Position numbers and translations under genes: made by a program. Under the pieces are notes generated by a model. The model worked only from the letters and a program-made list of their open reading frames with translations, made no database searches and was not told the origin of the DNA. Positions 19,115 through 58,533 of a DNA stretch of 64,000 nt are shown in pieces. Position 1 is the stretch's first letter, and every line of letters begins with the position of its first letter. Source of the DNA: a phage; the sequence record PZ583738.1; one strand, given 5' to 3'.

Positions 19115-19116
19115 CA

Positions 19117-19137
19117 AAAGGGCTTCGGCCCTTTTTT
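19117..19137 (+). terminator. intrinsic terminator GGGC-TTCG-GCCC-T6 after DNA ligase
   Basis: Stem-loop plus T6; A-run upstream. Confidence 0.75.
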
Positions 19138-19139
19138 AG

Positions 19140-19147
19140 TATAAATA
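19140..19147 (+). promoter_or_regulatory. late promoter TATAAATA for alt
   Basis: Exact octamer ~30 nt upstream of alt ATG, directly after the ligase terminator. Confidence 0.7.
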
Positions 19148-21594: not shown

Positions 21595-21598
21595 AAAA

Positions 21599-21620
21599 GG
21601 GACCTTCGGGTCCCTTTCTT
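21599..21620. terminator. bidirectional terminator GGGACC-TTCG-GGTCCC flanked by A-run and T-run
   Basis: Between convergent ORF 21304 (plus) and gene 54 (minus). Confidence 0.8.
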
Positions 21621-34052: not shown

Positions 34053-34059
34053 TTAAAAA

Positions 34060-34084
34060 GGGACCTTCGGGTCCCTTTGTTTTT
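34060..34084 (+). terminator. intrinsic terminator GGGACC-TTCG-GGTCCC-TTTGTTTTT after hoc
   Basis: Same stem sequence as 21599. Confidence 0.8.
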
Positions 34085-35771: not shown

Positions 35772-35778
35772 AAATAAA

Positions 35779-35799
35779 GGGACCCGAAGGTCCCTTTTT
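35779..35799. terminator. bidirectional terminator GGGACC-CGAA-GGTCCC between rnlB and gene 24
   Basis: A-run upstream, T5 downstream. Confidence 0.8.
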
Positions 35800-37470: not shown

Positions 37471-37480
37471 AAACAAGAAA

Positions 37481-37502
37481 GGGACCTCAAGGGTCCCTTT
37501 TT
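37481..37502. terminator. bidirectional terminator GGGACC-TCAAG-GGTCCC between ORF 37189 and gene 23
   Basis: T5 downstream; A-rich upstream. Confidence 0.75.
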
Positions 37503-41273: not shown

Positions 41274-42847
41274 TAGAAATCCTCTTCTTCTTCTTCAGGG
41301 TTTTGGAAACGAGCCTCTTTGGACTCCAATTCAATTTGCTTAGCTTCTTGATTAATTTCTTCATCAGACATCTGGAGGAAATCCTTCATAGCCGTTTGAT
41401 GCGAAATATATTTACCGATAAACGGTTCAGCCATCGTTAGCATATTGATTCTGCGTTCCATGATTTCTGCATCTTTCATTTCAGTGAAATAGCTATCACG
41501 GTTGAACGTAACTTTAATATTATTTAGTTCCTTTTCCCATTCCTCTTCTGAAATAATTTTTTTCAGGATAAGGTTGGTTTTAAGTGGGTCGAGGAAAACT
41601 TCTTCAAATTTATTCTGTAGCTGTCGAATCCATTTAGAGAAATTCAATTCATCGCGAGTAATTGTCGCGCCCGCATCAAACATAACACCACTGTTTTGGT
41701 CATTAGGGATACGAGATAATGGAATTCGGAGCGCCTGATATAGGTTGTTCTTAAACCAGCGAACATCGTCCATATCCGACATGCCTTGTGCACCCGGGAG
41801 TGTATCAACTTCAGTGACTGCTTTACCATCACGACGTTGCAACCAATAGTCTTCTGTCATTGACATGTTGTGCTGTTGGTTTTTGATTTTACCCGTAGTT
41901 GCATCATATACGACACGGTTTTTCATCGTGTTCATAATATGTTGCATGTGTGCTGCTGCTTTACGGGACGGCATATTCCCGGTATCGATATAAAAGACTC
42001 GGCGGTCTGGGGCACGAGTTATACGATAAATGACTAAAGCATCTTCTAATAGTTTTAATTGGTTTGCAGGTTTAATTGCTCGTTGCAAGTATCCGATGAT
42101 ATTCTTGCCACAACAATCGAGTAATCCAGAATGCGCATATACAATCGCCGCACGAGGAATTTTTATTTTAGTACCTGCTTCATATATACGACCATCGGCA
42201 CAATAACTTTCATGGCCAGTATCGTATACAAAATATTCTCTGTAACCGTCGACAATTTTTGTACCGTTTTCCATGCGTGTAACGATTTCACGGATGAACT
42301 GGATTTGTCTTGGGTCAAGGCGACGAAGTTCTTGAACTCCATCTTTAAGTTTTGATGGGTTGATAATTTTGTGGAAGAAAATTCGAGAATCCACATACCA
42401 ACGTTTAAAGTGGTCAGAACCTTTGCGCTCGAAATTAAGGAGGTTATTGACTTCCGAGAATTCTTCGAGGATTCGGTCTTTAATTTTCTGACTAAATTCG
42501 GTAGCATCAAGGTTAAGAGCTACAACATCTTTACCGTCTTCAAAAACGATAGCATCAGACACAATTTCTTGCACTGCGTTATCAACTTCATAATTATTTA
42601 GTAAGTTGCGGTAGGTGTCAATTAATTCCCTGGTATTTTTTACTTCAGGTTCATTGCTCCCGAACATCTGTTGCATCAATGCATTATACGGGACGTTTTG
42701 TTCTTGTGACTCAATTTCACGAGCCCCATCATCAAACTTCGGCCCGGTCATTGACTCTAAATTATTTTTTTCTTGTTGCTTATATTCTTGTTCATCTTCT
42801 TTAGCCCAAGGCTTAAGAAAATTTAGTATTGTGTTAAAACCTGCCAT
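41273..42847 (-). CDS. 20: portal vertex protein gp20
   Basis: 524 aa; extensive identity to T4 gp20 ([60 protein letters not shown]). Confidence 0.97.
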
Positions 42848-42895
42848 TAGAGTCTCCGAAGTTTGGGAAATGAGGCCGAAGCCTCATAATAACTT

Positions 42896-42903
42896 TATTT
42901 ATA
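42896..42903 (-). promoter_or_regulatory. late promoter TATAAATA for gene 20, followed by 5'-proximal hairpin
   Basis: Exact octamer on minus strand; GAGGC-CGAA-GCCTC hairpin at ~42872-42886 lies between promoter and RBS. Confidence 0.65.
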
Positions 42904-42904
42904 C

Positions 42905-43396
42905 TTATTCCCACCAGTCAATTGCGAACGTTGTTTCAAACGTCTCAATCTCATTATTGGAGTCCCAATCCATCTGGACTTCCCCAACGTTGGTTGGCCA
43001 CATGCCGGTAATAACAACTTCTTTCGTAATGGTCTTGCCATCACGATGGAACTGGCGGACAGTAGCGGTTTTCTTATAATCAGCAGGAGCTGCACCAGTG
43101 ATTTCGTTAGTCATACCGTGACACAGGTTTTGCCAATCAACAATTGCTTGACGAACTTTATGAGCATCGTCGTTATAAATCGTAATAGTCCAGTCATCAA
43201 ATGTACGGTCACCCGCCACGTTGATTTTACGGTTCATGTAACCGACCGGAACTTTTTCTACAATGCCTGCTGGCATCGGGGCTGCTTTACAATGGAAAGC
43301 AAAGTTTTTACCCAGGAATGGGATTTCGACTTCGAACAGGTTAGGGCGAGCAAAGTCCCCTGACTCGAAGGCCCTGGTGATATCAGTAAGTTCCAT
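42905..43396 (-). CDS. 19: tail tube protein gp19
   Basis: 163 aa; TRAFESGDFARPNLF.VEI...MNRKINVAGDRTFDDWT matches T4 gp19. Confidence 0.96.
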   Translation of the reverse strand: MELTDITRAFESGDFARPNLFEVEIPFLGKNFAFHCKAAPMPAGIVEKVPVGYMNRKINVAGDRTFDDWTITIYNDDAHKVRQAIVDWQNLCHGMTNEITGAAPADYKKTATVRQFHRDGKTITKEVVITGMWPTNVGEVQMDWDSNNEIETFETTFAIDWWE

Positions 43397-43399
43397 AAG

Positions 43400-44083
43400 T
43401 TATTGTTTCCTATGATAATTTTCTATAAATTCTTGTAAATCACGTAAAGATATACTATTATTTATATCCTTCGAACGATTCAATTCCCACGGAATCATTT
43501 CAAGATTTTCAATGTGTCCAATGATTTCGGGGTCGATATTATTGTCAAATCCATACTTGATGGAAACCTTGTGGTCTAATTGATATGCACCTTCAATTCC
43601 AGCTCTTCCGGTCTTTTCAAAATTTGGGAGATTTTGCACTTCAGATTTAAAATTTAATGCGGTGAATTGACGAACTGCATATGCATATCGTTTGAATTCT
43701 CTTAATCTTGGATTATATCGTCCGTTTAATTCCCCTCGAGTATTTATATTGGGAATACCCTTTTTGGATTTGGAGATTTTTACGCCTTTAGATTTTCGAA
43801 TTTTTAGTCCATCTGGTGTGTTCCAAAATTCTTTACGCAAATCCGAATAAATTTCCCATCTATGGCTTTTGCAGAATTGGATATTGATGTTATTTATTTT
43901 ATCTCGTGTAACTGTATATTCAGCTCCACATTCATCACATTTACAATCAACTTTGACTCGGCATCCCAAATGTTCAATGTTGATTAAATGTGTTGTTCCT
44001 ACTGAAACATCATAACCTTGCTCACGCAAATTTGTCACATTTCTATTAGTTACATTAACGAGTTGTTTATCACTTACTATCAT
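43400..44083 (-). CDS. freestanding HNH endonuclease with N-terminal Zn-ribbon, inserted between genes 18 and 19
   Basis: C-terminal HNH core (YQLDHKVSIKYGFDNNIDPEIIGHIENLEMIPWELNRSK); CxxC...CxxH cysteines in N-terminal half; TATAAATA late promoter ~115 nt upstream. Confidence 0.8.
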   Translation of the reverse strand: MIVSDKQLVNVTNRNVTNLREQGYDVSVGTTHLINIEHLGCRVKVDCKCDECGAEYTVTRDKINNINIQFCKSHRWEIYSDLRKEFWNTPDGLKIRKSKGVKISKSKKGIPNINTRGELNGRYNPRLREFKRYAYAVRQFTALNFKSEVQNLPNFEKTGRAGIEGAYQLDHKVSIKYGFDNNIDPEIIGHIENLEMIPWELNRSKDINNSISLRDLQEFIENYHRKQ

Positions 44084-44192: not shown

Positions 44193-44218
44193 TGCTTTTA
44201 TTTATAACACGGTATAAT
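44193..44218 (+). promoter_or_regulatory. middle-promoter-like element (TGCTTTT box, 13-nt spacer, TATAAT, GGGTCTAAT extension) antisense to gene 18
   Basis: Same motif family as 11263, 28880, 34640; no plus-strand gene downstream. Confidence 0.4.
44199..44206 (-). promoter_or_regulatory. late promoter TATAAATA for the HNH gene at 43400..44083
   Basis: Exact octamer on minus strand ~115 nt upstream of the HNH ATG. Confidence 0.5.
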
Positions 44219-44291
44219 GGGTCTAATCTATTCCGTTAAGCAATTACACTCAACCATAATAGGTAAGAGGGGACTTTCATCCCCTAATTTA

Positions 44292-46271
44292 TTATTGTGG
44301 CCCAATCAGCTCATCGAAATTAGCACCGGTGCTTGTTGCTACGAAATTAAGCGTGATGTAGTTGATGCTGCGCGCCGGTTTGAAATAAATGCTGGCAACA
44401 AACTCATTTCGGTCTATGACCGACGGGGTGTTGTTGGTAGTATCACAAACCACACGACCTTCATAAATGCCACCGAGCGCACGAATACCATCCAAGTATT
44501 GAGAAGTTTCCATACGGAATGATGCACGAGTGAAGTTATCGTTAAGCTCAAACAGTTTATATTTGGATGCGTCACCGATATTTTTCTTCAGCATATTCGT
44601 AAGACGGCGAACGTTGATATGGTCCATCGGAGATGGAACTTTAGTTGCAGTCTTATCACCATACAGAACAAAACCATCACCACCTGCGAAACCAACAACC
44701 GGGTTGATAGCTTCCTGATACATGCGGTCACGTTGGGTCTGACGTGGTTCAACAGCCAATTTCAGAACGTTCAGAATCTGACCGCGGTTATAACCTGCCG
44801 GAGACATCCAAGGCTGAGAAACATCATCAGTACGAGCACACAGACCAGCCATATCAGCTGCCAGAGGAACCCAACGGTTAACGTCGTTATATTTATCATA
44901 CTGATATTTATAGTTGCCATCAATCGCTGCATAAGTCGTGCTGATATTCATGTTATCAGTATCAAATGCACCAGCACCTGTACGCCAGTCAATCAGGTTA
45001 TCCACTGCACGGGTCAGAGGAACGTTAACCAACAGACCTTTCGGCGGGGAAATGAATGCCAAGCAATCCTGACGTTCGTCAGCAATAGAAACTACGTGCT
45101 TCTGAACAGTGGAAGCGGTCGCATCACCTTCACCAGCACAAGCACCAGCGATAAGTAGGTTGATATGCAGAGCTTCACGGTCAGCGAACAGGTCCCAACC
45201 TTGCATCAAATCACCAGCGGTAATCTTATCGTTTGCAGAAATACCACCAGACAGATTGATGATACCACTGAAGCCTACAGGCCAGTTGCGAGATGTTGCA
45301 TAGATGTAGTTGGAAGTACCTTTTGCAAAGTAGTCATCCAGGTAAATGTTATTACCATAAACATCTTTTTCGCCCTGCTTAGTAGACAAAACAACGTTTT
45401 CGACGATTGCACCATCGCGGCGAACGATAATTGCATATTGGTTTTCGGTCTGAGGACCATAGTTAAACACTGCACGAGCTATAGAAGCGCGGGAACCACC
45501 ACCGGGGAAAATATCCAGATTTGCAGTTGCGCCTTTTTCAAATTCAGCTTTGGATACGATTTCAACTTCAAGAGTCGAACCAATTTCACCAGGATAAAGA
45601 GCAACAACACCCGGCATTACATATTTTGCCAATGATGCCTGGAATTCCAGAGAAGTAATTGCTTCTTCACTGTTTTCTGCTTCAGTCAACAGAATGCCAG
45701 AATCGGTAACAATTTTTCCGACAGTGATGGTACCAGATACACCGGAAGAAGTGGTCGTAACTTCTGCAGTCCATGCACTGCCCAAATTAGGATACTGATT
45801 AATAGTTTTAGCAAATGCAATAATCTTATTGGTAGGAATAAAGATTGCCAGAATTTTACCATCAACATCGACCTTGGTCACACGGCCAGCTGGTTCAACA
45901 ACAGTCTGGTTGTGTTTAACCTGAATAACATCACCGACAGCATAGTTTGTACCAGCAGTTACGATGGTAGTTTCAATATTGCCAGCAATAGGGGATGCGT
46001 TTTTAGCTTCGTCACGGTTAACAACACGTACAGTACGGAGGTCATTACCATATTGCAGGAAGTTCATCCCACTCATAAAGTAATCTGCTGTTTCATTATT
46101 CGGACCACCAAACAAATCAACAAGTTCAACTTCGTTTGTAATCTGAGTTACCTGGAAAGCTGGGCCCCACTGGAATTTACCAACCAGCGCCGCACGACCC
46201 GTCGCGTTACGAACAACAGTGCTTTGGACCGTTGTTTCTTTGAGCTCAATGCCCGGAGATAATAAAGCCAT
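44292..46271 (-). CDS. 18: tail sheath protein gp18
   Basis: 659 aa; colinear with T4 gp18 (MALLSPGIELKETTVQSTVV..., NVRRL.NMLK.NIG, NYITLNFVATSTGA). Confidence 0.98.
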   Translation of the reverse strand: MALLSPGIELKETTVQSTVVRNATGRAALVGKFQWGPAFQVTQITNEVELVDLFGGPNNETADYFMSGMNFLQYGNDLRTVRVVNRDEAKNASPIAGNIETTIVTAGTNYAVGDVIQVKHNQTVVEPAGRVTKVDVDGKILAIFIPTNKIIAFAKTINQYPNLGSAWTAEVTTTSSGVSGTITVGKIVTDSGILLTEAENSEEAITSLEFQASLAKYVMPGVVALYPGEIGSTLEVEIVSKAEFEKGATANLDIFPGGGSRASIARAVFNYGPQTENQYAIIVRRDGAIVENVVLSTKQGEKDVYGNNIYLDDYFAKGTSNYIYATSRNWPVGFSGIINLSGGISANDKITAGDLMQGWDLFADREALHINLLIAGACAGEGDATASTVQKHVVSIADERQDCLAFISPPKGLLVNVPLTRAVDNLIDWRTGAGAFDTDNMNISTTYAAIDGNYKYQYDKYNDVNRWVPLAADMAGLCARTDDVSQPWMSPAGYNRGQILNVLKLAVEPRQTQRDRMYQEAINPVVGFAGGDGFVLYGDKTATKVPSPMDHINVRRLTNMLKKNIGDASKYKLFELNDNFTRASFRMETSQYLDGIRALGGIYEGRVVCDTTNNTPSVIDRNEFVASIYFKPARSINYITLNFVATSTGANFDELIGPQ

Positions 46272-51899: not shown

Positions 51900-51907
51900 T
51901 ATTTATA
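51900..51907 (-). promoter_or_regulatory. late promoter TATAAATA for gene 13
   Basis: Exact octamer on minus strand ~20 nt upstream of gene 13 ATG, directly after the wac terminator. Confidence 0.7.
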
Positions 51908-51910
51908 CGA

Positions 51911-51934
51911 AAAAAGGGCCGAAGCCCTTTTATT
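51911..51934 (-). terminator. terminator GGGC-CGAA-GCCC with flanking A6/T-run after wac
   Basis: On minus strand the hairpin is followed by T6, then the gene 13 late promoter. Confidence 0.75.
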
Positions 51935-58508: not shown

Positions 58509-58533
58509 AAAAAGGGACCCGAAGGTCCCTTGT
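58509..58533 (-). terminator. terminator GGGACC-CGAA-GGTCCC after gene 8
   Basis: On minus strand followed by T6, then the gene 9 late promoter. Confidence 0.8.

Follow-up and report, generated by a model that had tools for sequence, protein, structure and literature searches.

A C(UUCG)G hairpin between the tail tube and portal genes of a T4-like phage: a probable protector of mRNA ends

INTRODUCTION

Hairpins built on a CUUCGG core are abundant in the intergenic regions of phage T4 and stop reverse transcriptase (Tuerk 1988, in the summary given by PMC8948821). An exceptional thermal stability is another character of the class. According to the same summary, the class is defined by the CUUCGG sequence plus flanking complementary arms of 2-8 nt, and the stabilisation of T4 gene 32 mRNA has been credited to a 5′ hairpin (Gorski 1985). 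T4 mRNA is acted on by RNase E and by 3′ exonucleases of the host (PMC3014915). The late promoters of T4, which depend on gp55, consist of a box located about 6 nt before the start site and an A+T-rich stretch that follows it (PMC1524935; PMC2988020); the box, TATAAATA, occupies positions -13 to -6 (PMC1524935). Besides gp55, initiation at these promoters requires gp33 and gp45. A dRNA-seq preprint reports 150 T4 start sites (10.1101/2024.04.04.588121).

At the junction between genes 19 and 20, the GenBank record of T4 contains CDS features only, with no promoter or terminator features, and no published description of an element at this junction in T4-like phages was found in a literature search. 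Stem-loops located at the 5′ terminus are reported to stabilise E. coli mRNAs, three free nucleotides ahead of the stem being near the upper limit reported for this protection. The ompA type of such stem-loops is defined by a hairpin within about 2-4 unpaired nt of the 5′ end and by a shorter mRNA half-life once it is removed. A hairpin of the CUUCGG type, lying just downstream of a late promoter box, is described here at the gene 19-20 junction of a relative of phages SP18 and VR7.

RESULTS

Layout of the gene 19-20 junction

The stretch of DNA analysed (hereafter, the window) comprises 64,000 nt of record PZ583738.1 and comes from a T4-like phage of the SP18/VR7 type (Gaprivervirus; Tevenvirinae). 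About 32 records showed 94-98.6% identity to it across 1 kb. Genes 19 and 20, coding for the tail tube and portal proteins, follow the tail sheath gene and precede homologues of gp67, gp68 and gp21, the whole neighbourhood being encoded in the minus strand (Table 1). The spacer between genes 19 and 20 is 57 nt long. Read in the mRNA sense, the TAA stop codon of gene 19 is followed by a single G, the late promoter box TATAAATA, the segment AAGUUAUU, the hairpin, the segment UUCCCAAACUUC, the GGAG Shine-Dalgarno sequence of gene 20, ACUCUA and the AUG of the portal gene. The box therefore starts 2 nt past the gene 19 stop codon and 48 nt ahead of the portal AUG. A second CUUCGG, present 9 nt further on, is not flanked by complementary arms, and part of it coincides with the GGAG of gene 20. 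It is retained in the phages of the PEi20 and CIP9 types described below, and reads CAUCGG in those of the JS98 type.

Table 1. Features of the gene 19-20 region and other elements mentioned in the text. Positions refer to the window, except for the seg-like ORFs, which are numbered within their own loci.
Feature	Position	Strand	Remarks
gp18, tail sheath	44292-46271	(-)	
GAAA-loop hairpin AGGGGAU-GAAA-GUCCCCU past the gene 18 stop	44268-44285	(-)	-10.6 kcal/mol
TATAAATA of the 227-aa ORF	44199-44206		
227-aa ORF between genes 18 and 19	43400-44083	(-)	phrog_5104
TATAAATA of gene 19	43459-43466		inside the 3′ end of the 227-aa ORF
Gene 19, tail tube protein, 163 aa	42905-43396	(-)	phrog_45 tail tube, E = 3.4e-65
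Gene 19 stop codon, TAA	42907-42905	(-)	
Late promoter box TATAAATA of gene 20, T4 type	42896-42903	(-)	exact match
Predicted late start, +1 A	42890	(-)	inferred from TATAAATA at -13 to -6 (PMC1524935)
RNA hairpin AUGAGGC-UUCG-GCCUCAU	42870-42887	(-)	7-bp stem; C(UUCG)G tetraloop, loop 42880-42877
Second CUUCGG	42856-42861	(-)	
GGAG Shine-Dalgarno of gene 20	42854-42857	(-)	6 nt 5′ of AUG 42847; from sequence
Gene 20, portal protein, 524 aa	41273-42847	(-)	phrog_213 portal, E = 5.8e-224
Terminator plus late-promoter unit	19116-19147	(+)	
Terminator plus late-promoter unit	51900-51931	(-)	
Near-identical regulatory cassettes	21596-21617; 34057-34078; 35776-35797; 58512-58531; 37478-37500		
Seg-like ORFs between genes 19 and 20	L009 2031-2690; L011 2060-2641; L014 2033-2608; L023 2026-2604		weak GIY-YIG/NUMOD matches

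The 227-aa ORF located between genes 18 and 19 is absent from SP18. Its best match was found in VR26 (89% amino acid identity); the others, at most 54% identical, are scattered in T4-like phages and are mostly annotated as 'hypothetical'. A Pfam search with this ORF gave no hit. An HNH-like motif (DH..N..H..N) can be recognised by eye near its C-terminus, so that the ORF probably encodes a homing endonuclease of the free-standing kind. The ORF is provided with its own TATAAATA box, and the box of gene 19 lies inside its 3′ end. Past the stop codon of gene 18, a hairpin with a GAAA loop is followed some 60 nt on by TATAAATA, which is the order found in T4 and the opposite of that at the 19-20 junction.

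The spacer contains a stable tetraloop hairpin

The RNA transcribed from the spacer can form a stem of seven pairs, four of them G-C and including the C-G pair that closes a UUCG loop. The hairpin begins 17 nt past the 3′ end of gene 19 and ends 12 nt before the GGAG. Folded alone it had a predicted dG of -10.7 kcal/mol (z = -4.8), a value matched by none of 200 dinucleotide shuffles. Hairpins of -9.5 kcal/mol or better numbered 61 on the two strands of the window, as compared with about 30 in shuffled sequences; the chance rate of such hairpins is about one per 4 kb of strand, or about 1% for any given 57-nt spacer. The hairpin between genes 19 and 20 is real. A reading made earlier from the sequence alone had already placed a hairpin here, written as GAGGC-CGAA-GCCTC. 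The hairpin stands; the stem of five pairs does not, seven being present, and the loop given as CGAA is the plus-strand complement of the UUCG found in the RNA, so that a classic tetraloop had been overlooked.

The CUUCGG core with its complementary arms, the intergenic location, the presence on the mRNA strand and the host genome being that of a T4-type phage all agree with the hairpins of Tuerk 1988; by each feature that can be tested, the hairpin belongs to the T4-type C(UUCG)G class. CTTCGG was found 47 times in the window, while 19.6 occurrences were expected. An Rfam scan of positions 42700-43000 matched no family; its sole hit, CRISPR-DR56, scored 18.4 bits against a threshold of 35, lies inside gene 19 and is a chance match. 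The window also contains repeated elements of related type. Three sites carry the hairpin AAAGGGACC-UUCG-GGUCCCUUU and two others carry variants of it, within near-identical regulatory cassettes, and a unit of about 35 nt combining a terminator and a late promoter, AAAAGGGCUUCGGCCCUUUUUU(A/C)GUAUAAAUAC, is present on both strands (Table 1).

Compensatory changes in close relatives

The junction (73 nt) was 100% identical in all 33 records of the SP18/VR7 group. When five close genomes were compared, no variable site was found in a 60-nt spacer segment, as against 34 over the final 398 nt of gene 19 and 22 over the opening 403 nt of gene 20; the coding DNA beside the spacer thus varies by 5-9%. 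The first 150 nt or so of gene 20 (42845-42700) contained 0-1 variable sites per 60 nt, as compared with 6-12 at the end of gene 19, which may reflect either a constraint beyond that on the protein or a recent recombination tract.

Stems of different sequence were found in related genera. In the Edwardsiella phage PEi20 type (L006; L numbers denote loci of the family sample) the stem-loop reads AAGGAGAC-UUCG-GUCUCCUU, and in the Enterobacter phage CIP9 type (L008) and the JS98 type (L013-L017) it reads AAGGAGC-UUCG-GCUCCUU. Three of the seven pairs differ on both arms between the window and the CIP9/JS98 stem (U-A to A-U, A-U to G-C and G-C to A-U), and none is broken; the PEi20 stem has an additional A-U pair, inserted in both arms. 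Since these stems are anchored by the conserved flanks TATAAATA and CGGAGACUCUAAUG, the latter on the ribosome-binding side of gene 20 and invariant within the clade, the pair changes represent real covariation. They were read straight from the sequences, a MAFFT alignment of the seven clade spacers having misregistered the PEi20 and L019 stems because of indels. A pattern scan of IMG/VR that included the gene 20 ribosome-binding region revealed no further stem variants; it otherwise returned unrelated chance matches.

A hairpin after gene 19 is the constant feature of the wider family

The comparison was extended to 79 loci encoding gp19 relatives (99% to 35% identity), plus T4 (AF158101). 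Among the 51 distinct spacers with a gp19 identity of at least 55%, 44 contained a hairpin of -9 kcal/mol or better within 60 nt of the gene 19 stop codon, and each of these 44 was significant (p ≤ 0.05) against shuffles of its own spacer. Their loops were mainly tetraloops (UUCG, GAAA, GCAA, UACG). Many share the stem base AAUG...CAUU, which suggests, from the sequences compared, a common descent. A structure-anchored alignment of 23 hairpins showed 100% pairing and 56 double changes; because each had been chosen for being a hairpin the exercise is circular, and it is descriptive, not proof.

The position of the promoter relative to the hairpin differed among lineages. In T4, the gene 19 stop codon is followed by AUGGGGA-GAAA-UCCCCAU, a small second hairpin, TATAAATA, a 20-nt leader and the AUG. 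The hairpin also lies upstream of the gene 20 promoter in most other lineages. In the RB49-like phages, L019 and L051 it is found 0-2 nt downstream of the box; the start would fall within the stem, and it therefore cannot be a leader hairpin of gene 20. In L037 and L038 the box is included in the stem-loop of a longer hairpin. The constant feature of the family is thus a hairpin after gene 19, not one in the gene 20 leader. Given that T4 and the majority of lineages have the hairpin ahead of the promoter, a widely shared role would be on the gene 19 side. The sequence-only reading, which took the hairpin for a leader element, had proposed a comparison with the T4 19-20 junction; once made, it speaks against that view as a general rule, the T4 hairpin being upstream of the gene 20 promoter.

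A second, A+T-rich inverted repeat of the GCUUAAA type was seen, in either orientation, in T4 (L002, 9150-9165), L007, L018, L025, L030 and L032. The L025 example is TTTGCTTAAA, the other spacers having one-base variants. This repeat is found in spacers in which the hairpin comes before the promoter and is absent from that of the window. It resembles the core of a MotA box (TGCTTA).

Insertions between genes 19 and 20

A seg-like ORF of 190-219 aa separates genes 19 and 20 in L009, L011/L012, L014 and L023 (Table 1). The matches of these ORFs to GIY-YIG domains were weak and below threshold; that of L009 has a NUMOD3 motif. In L011/L012 the unit formed by TATAAATA and the UUCG hairpin is still directly ahead of gene 20 despite the insert, and in L009, L014 and L023 a further TATAAATA box is present at the corresponding place. 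Since the unit stays by gene 20 after the insertion, the hairpin travels with gene 20 in this clade. On the other side of the insert, gene 19 is succeeded by a further TATAAATA, and the interval up to the inserted ORF contains no G+C-rich hairpin; the one nearest to gene 19 lies 67-94 nt downstream, within the coding region of that ORF. A hairpin directly after gene 19 is therefore not indispensable, and its role at the 3′ side of gene 19 is either dispensable or served from further off. The 145-nt spacers of L020 and L021 contain an apparent remnant of the 5′ end of a seg-like gene, including the hairpin ACGGGGAA-UAAAC-UUCCCCGU. These sequences mark the 19-20 spacer as a place where mobile endonuclease genes have inserted repeatedly.

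The late promoter and the predicted start

The window contains 19 copies of TATAAATA, while 4.2 would be expected, and the minus strand carries 16 of the 19. The copy ahead of gene 20 is followed by an A+T-rich stretch, AAGUUAUU, and so has the sequence features of a T4 late promoter. Related genera have retained the box at the same location, and show the A/T variation at -13 noted in PMC1524935. The coordinates assigned to it in the sequence-only reading were exact, and the order, box and then hairpin, is as described there. With TATAAATA spanning -13 to -6, transcription is predicted to start at an A (Table 1), and the stem would start at +4. The gap between the box and the stem is 8 nt, which leaves three unpaired nucleotides before the stem, counted from this predicted start. 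The PEi20, CIP9 and JS98 types have the same 8-nt gap and retain the A at +1, although their stems differ. The earlier proposal that the late mRNA of gene 20 has the hairpin at its extreme 5′ end agrees with this prediction.

No other late promoter of the window has this arrangement: a strong hairpin was present downstream of only one of the 19 boxes, that of gene 20. A 5′ hairpin is therefore no general design for the late mRNAs of the window, and its position downstream of the box could be merely inherited. The boxes at 19140, 51900 and 58496 show the reverse order, with a UUCG hairpin and a U-tract lying 4-8 nt upstream, that is, a terminator-promoter tandem.

The hairpin lacks the U-tract of a terminator

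The sequence-only reading had also suggested that the hairpin could terminate read-through from gene 19, and one form of this idea would be an intrinsic (rho-independent) terminator or attenuator ending the gene 18/19 transcripts, and so lowering the portal protein relative to the tail tube. The stem is G+C-rich and comes right after a highly expressed gene, and the virion contains 12 copies of the portal protein and about 138 of the tail tube protein, a ratio that such an attenuator would suit. Real U-tracts follow the hairpin in lineages L020, L034 and L022. In the window, however, the tail of the stem is UUCCCAAAC, with UUU only and then CCC, while a rho-independent terminator should have at least five U in 8 nt; a consensus terminator scan did not call the hairpin. 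The window contains ten intergenic sense-strand C(UUCG)G hairpins of 7-9 pairs and the other nine end in, or precede, five or more U, so that the absence of the tract at the 19-20 junction looks selected. This absence is to be expected if transcripts from the promoter located 8 nt upstream have to traverse the hairpin; a terminator at this place would also cut short the transcripts of gene 20 itself. Among the TransTerm predictions of Nolan et al. (2006), a '19-->20' terminator is given for the equivalent hairpin of RB49, for which no adjoining late promoter is listed; none is given for RB69, RB43 and 44RR, nor in the portion of the Aeh1 list that includes the late-gene region. Termination at the gene 19-20 hairpin is unlikely, and the read-through terminator is accordingly a weak proposal.

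DISCUSSION

Protection of mRNA ends is a more probable role for the hairpin than the arrest of transcription. The reading that we favour, at a probability of roughly 0.55, is that of a non-terminating C(UUCG)G hairpin acting on mRNA stability, both as a 3′ barrier for the gene 19 message and, in this clade specifically, as a 5′ stem-loop of the gene 20 message; the two protective effects are inferred from the structure, its conservation and its position. On long late transcripts that read through genes 18 and 19 the hairpin would be intercistronic. After an endonucleolytic cut further downstream it would block 3′-to-5′ exonucleases and preserve the abundant tail-tube message. Transcripts from the gene 20 promoter would begin about 3 nt before the stem, and on these the hairpin would form a 5′-terminal stem-loop, a geometry known to slow the decay that depends on the 5′ end (RppH, RNase E). 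Three unpaired nucleotides may still admit RppH, so the 5′ protection is possibly partial.

A more specific evolutionary version is tentative, and we would sooner bet against it than for it. The ancestral 3′ hairpin of gene 19 would have become a leader of gene 20 when the promoter moved upstream of it in the clade of SP18/VR7, JS98, CIP9 and PEi20; any U-tract would have been lost, and the 5′-terminal UUCG stem-loop would now set the lifetime of the portal mRNA. If true, this would be a change in the role of one RNA element brought about solely by swapping the order of promoter and hairpin.

It is doubtful that the hairpin serves the late mRNA of gene 20 alone, as a 5′ leader element, and has no role for the upstream message. 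The predicted start at three nucleotides from the stem, the spacing and the +1 A conserved in four genera, and the persistence of the unit beside gene 20 after the seg-like insertion would all fit a leader element. The homologous hairpin of T4 and of most lineages, which comes before the promoter, does not, nor do the stems that start 0-2 nt past the box in the RB49-like phages, L019 and L051, inside which the start would fall; the shared AAUG...CAUU stem base, moreover, suggests a common descent. The terminator discussed above is, for its part, unlikely.

Tuning of gene 20 translation is highly improbable. The minimum free energy fold of the leader adds, beside the hairpin, a 4-bp UUCC-GGAG helix (about -2.4 kcal/mol) on which the hairpin might stack, partly hiding the Shine-Dalgarno sequence, and a CCC run located 5-9 nt ahead of GGAG recurs in many lineages. 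The helix is weak, however (z = -1.3 for the 71-nt fold), it is not kept in the spacers of the JS98 or L020 types, and the main hairpin ends short of GGAG without contacting it. Masking of the Shine-Dalgarno by this helix was rejected as the main function, the helix being weak and not conserved. An equally slight chance is given to a role as a DNA-level inverted repeat (a cruciform for promoter opening, or a recombination or homing site) or to a functionless inherited sequence: G+C-rich inverted repeats do lie 0-11 nt from TATAAATA in numerous lineages, as they do at three further sites of the window, and the spacer does receive seg-like genes, but the UUCG loop is on the sense strand, as in ten or so other CUUCGG hairpins, a sign that selection has acted on the RNA, the adjacency is explained elsewhere by terminator-promoter tandems, and neutrality is opposed by the compensatory changes and the invariant spacer.

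The end-protecting hairpin proposed here is an ordinary one for T4-like phages and matters little beyond annotation. Its mildly unusual point is the order of promoter and hairpin, which is reversed with respect to T4 and to the other pairs in the window. In this group of phages, the junction identifies gene 20 as a gene with a late promoter of its own. The hairpin is also a predicted block to reverse transcriptase, and in primer-extension or RNA-seq data it could be taken for the end of a transcript. The related phages, with the promoter before the hairpin in some and after it in others, constitute a natural set for testing 5′ and 3′ protection.

Among described elements, the T4 intercistronic C(UUCG)G hairpins are matched in the CUUCGG core, the C-G closing pair, the inverted repeat and the intergenic location on the sense strand. 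The window's C(UUCG)G hairpins mostly carry a U-tract and resemble terminators; the one between genes 19 and 20 does not, and it is the sole one placed after, not before, a late promoter. It would resemble the 5′ stem-loops of the ompA/papA type and the leader of T4 gene 32 in that, from the predicted start, a stable hairpin lies within about 3 nt of the 5′ end of an mRNA made in E. coli, where decay is driven by RNase E. Rho-independent terminators and terminator-promoter tandems resemble it in having a G+C-rich stem-loop between two late genes. In the window, the hairpins at 19116, 51912 and 58512 are terminator-like and lie 4-8 nt before TATAAATA, forming the tandem known from T4-like phages, whereas that of the 19-20 junction has no U-tract and follows the promoter. 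A further counterpart is the T4 19-20 junction itself, where the same two genes are separated by a spacer with a 7-bp, G+C-rich tetraloop hairpin having an AUG...CAU base after gene 19; ahead of gene 20 it contains TATAAATA and, as the ribosome-binding site, GGAG. The T4 spacer differs in its length (83 nt as compared with 57 nt), in its GAAA loop, and in the location of the hairpin 24 nt upstream of the promoter with the second, small hairpin in between. The late transcript of T4 gene 20 would therefore exclude its hairpin, whereas the UUCG hairpin of the window would be inside the transcript.
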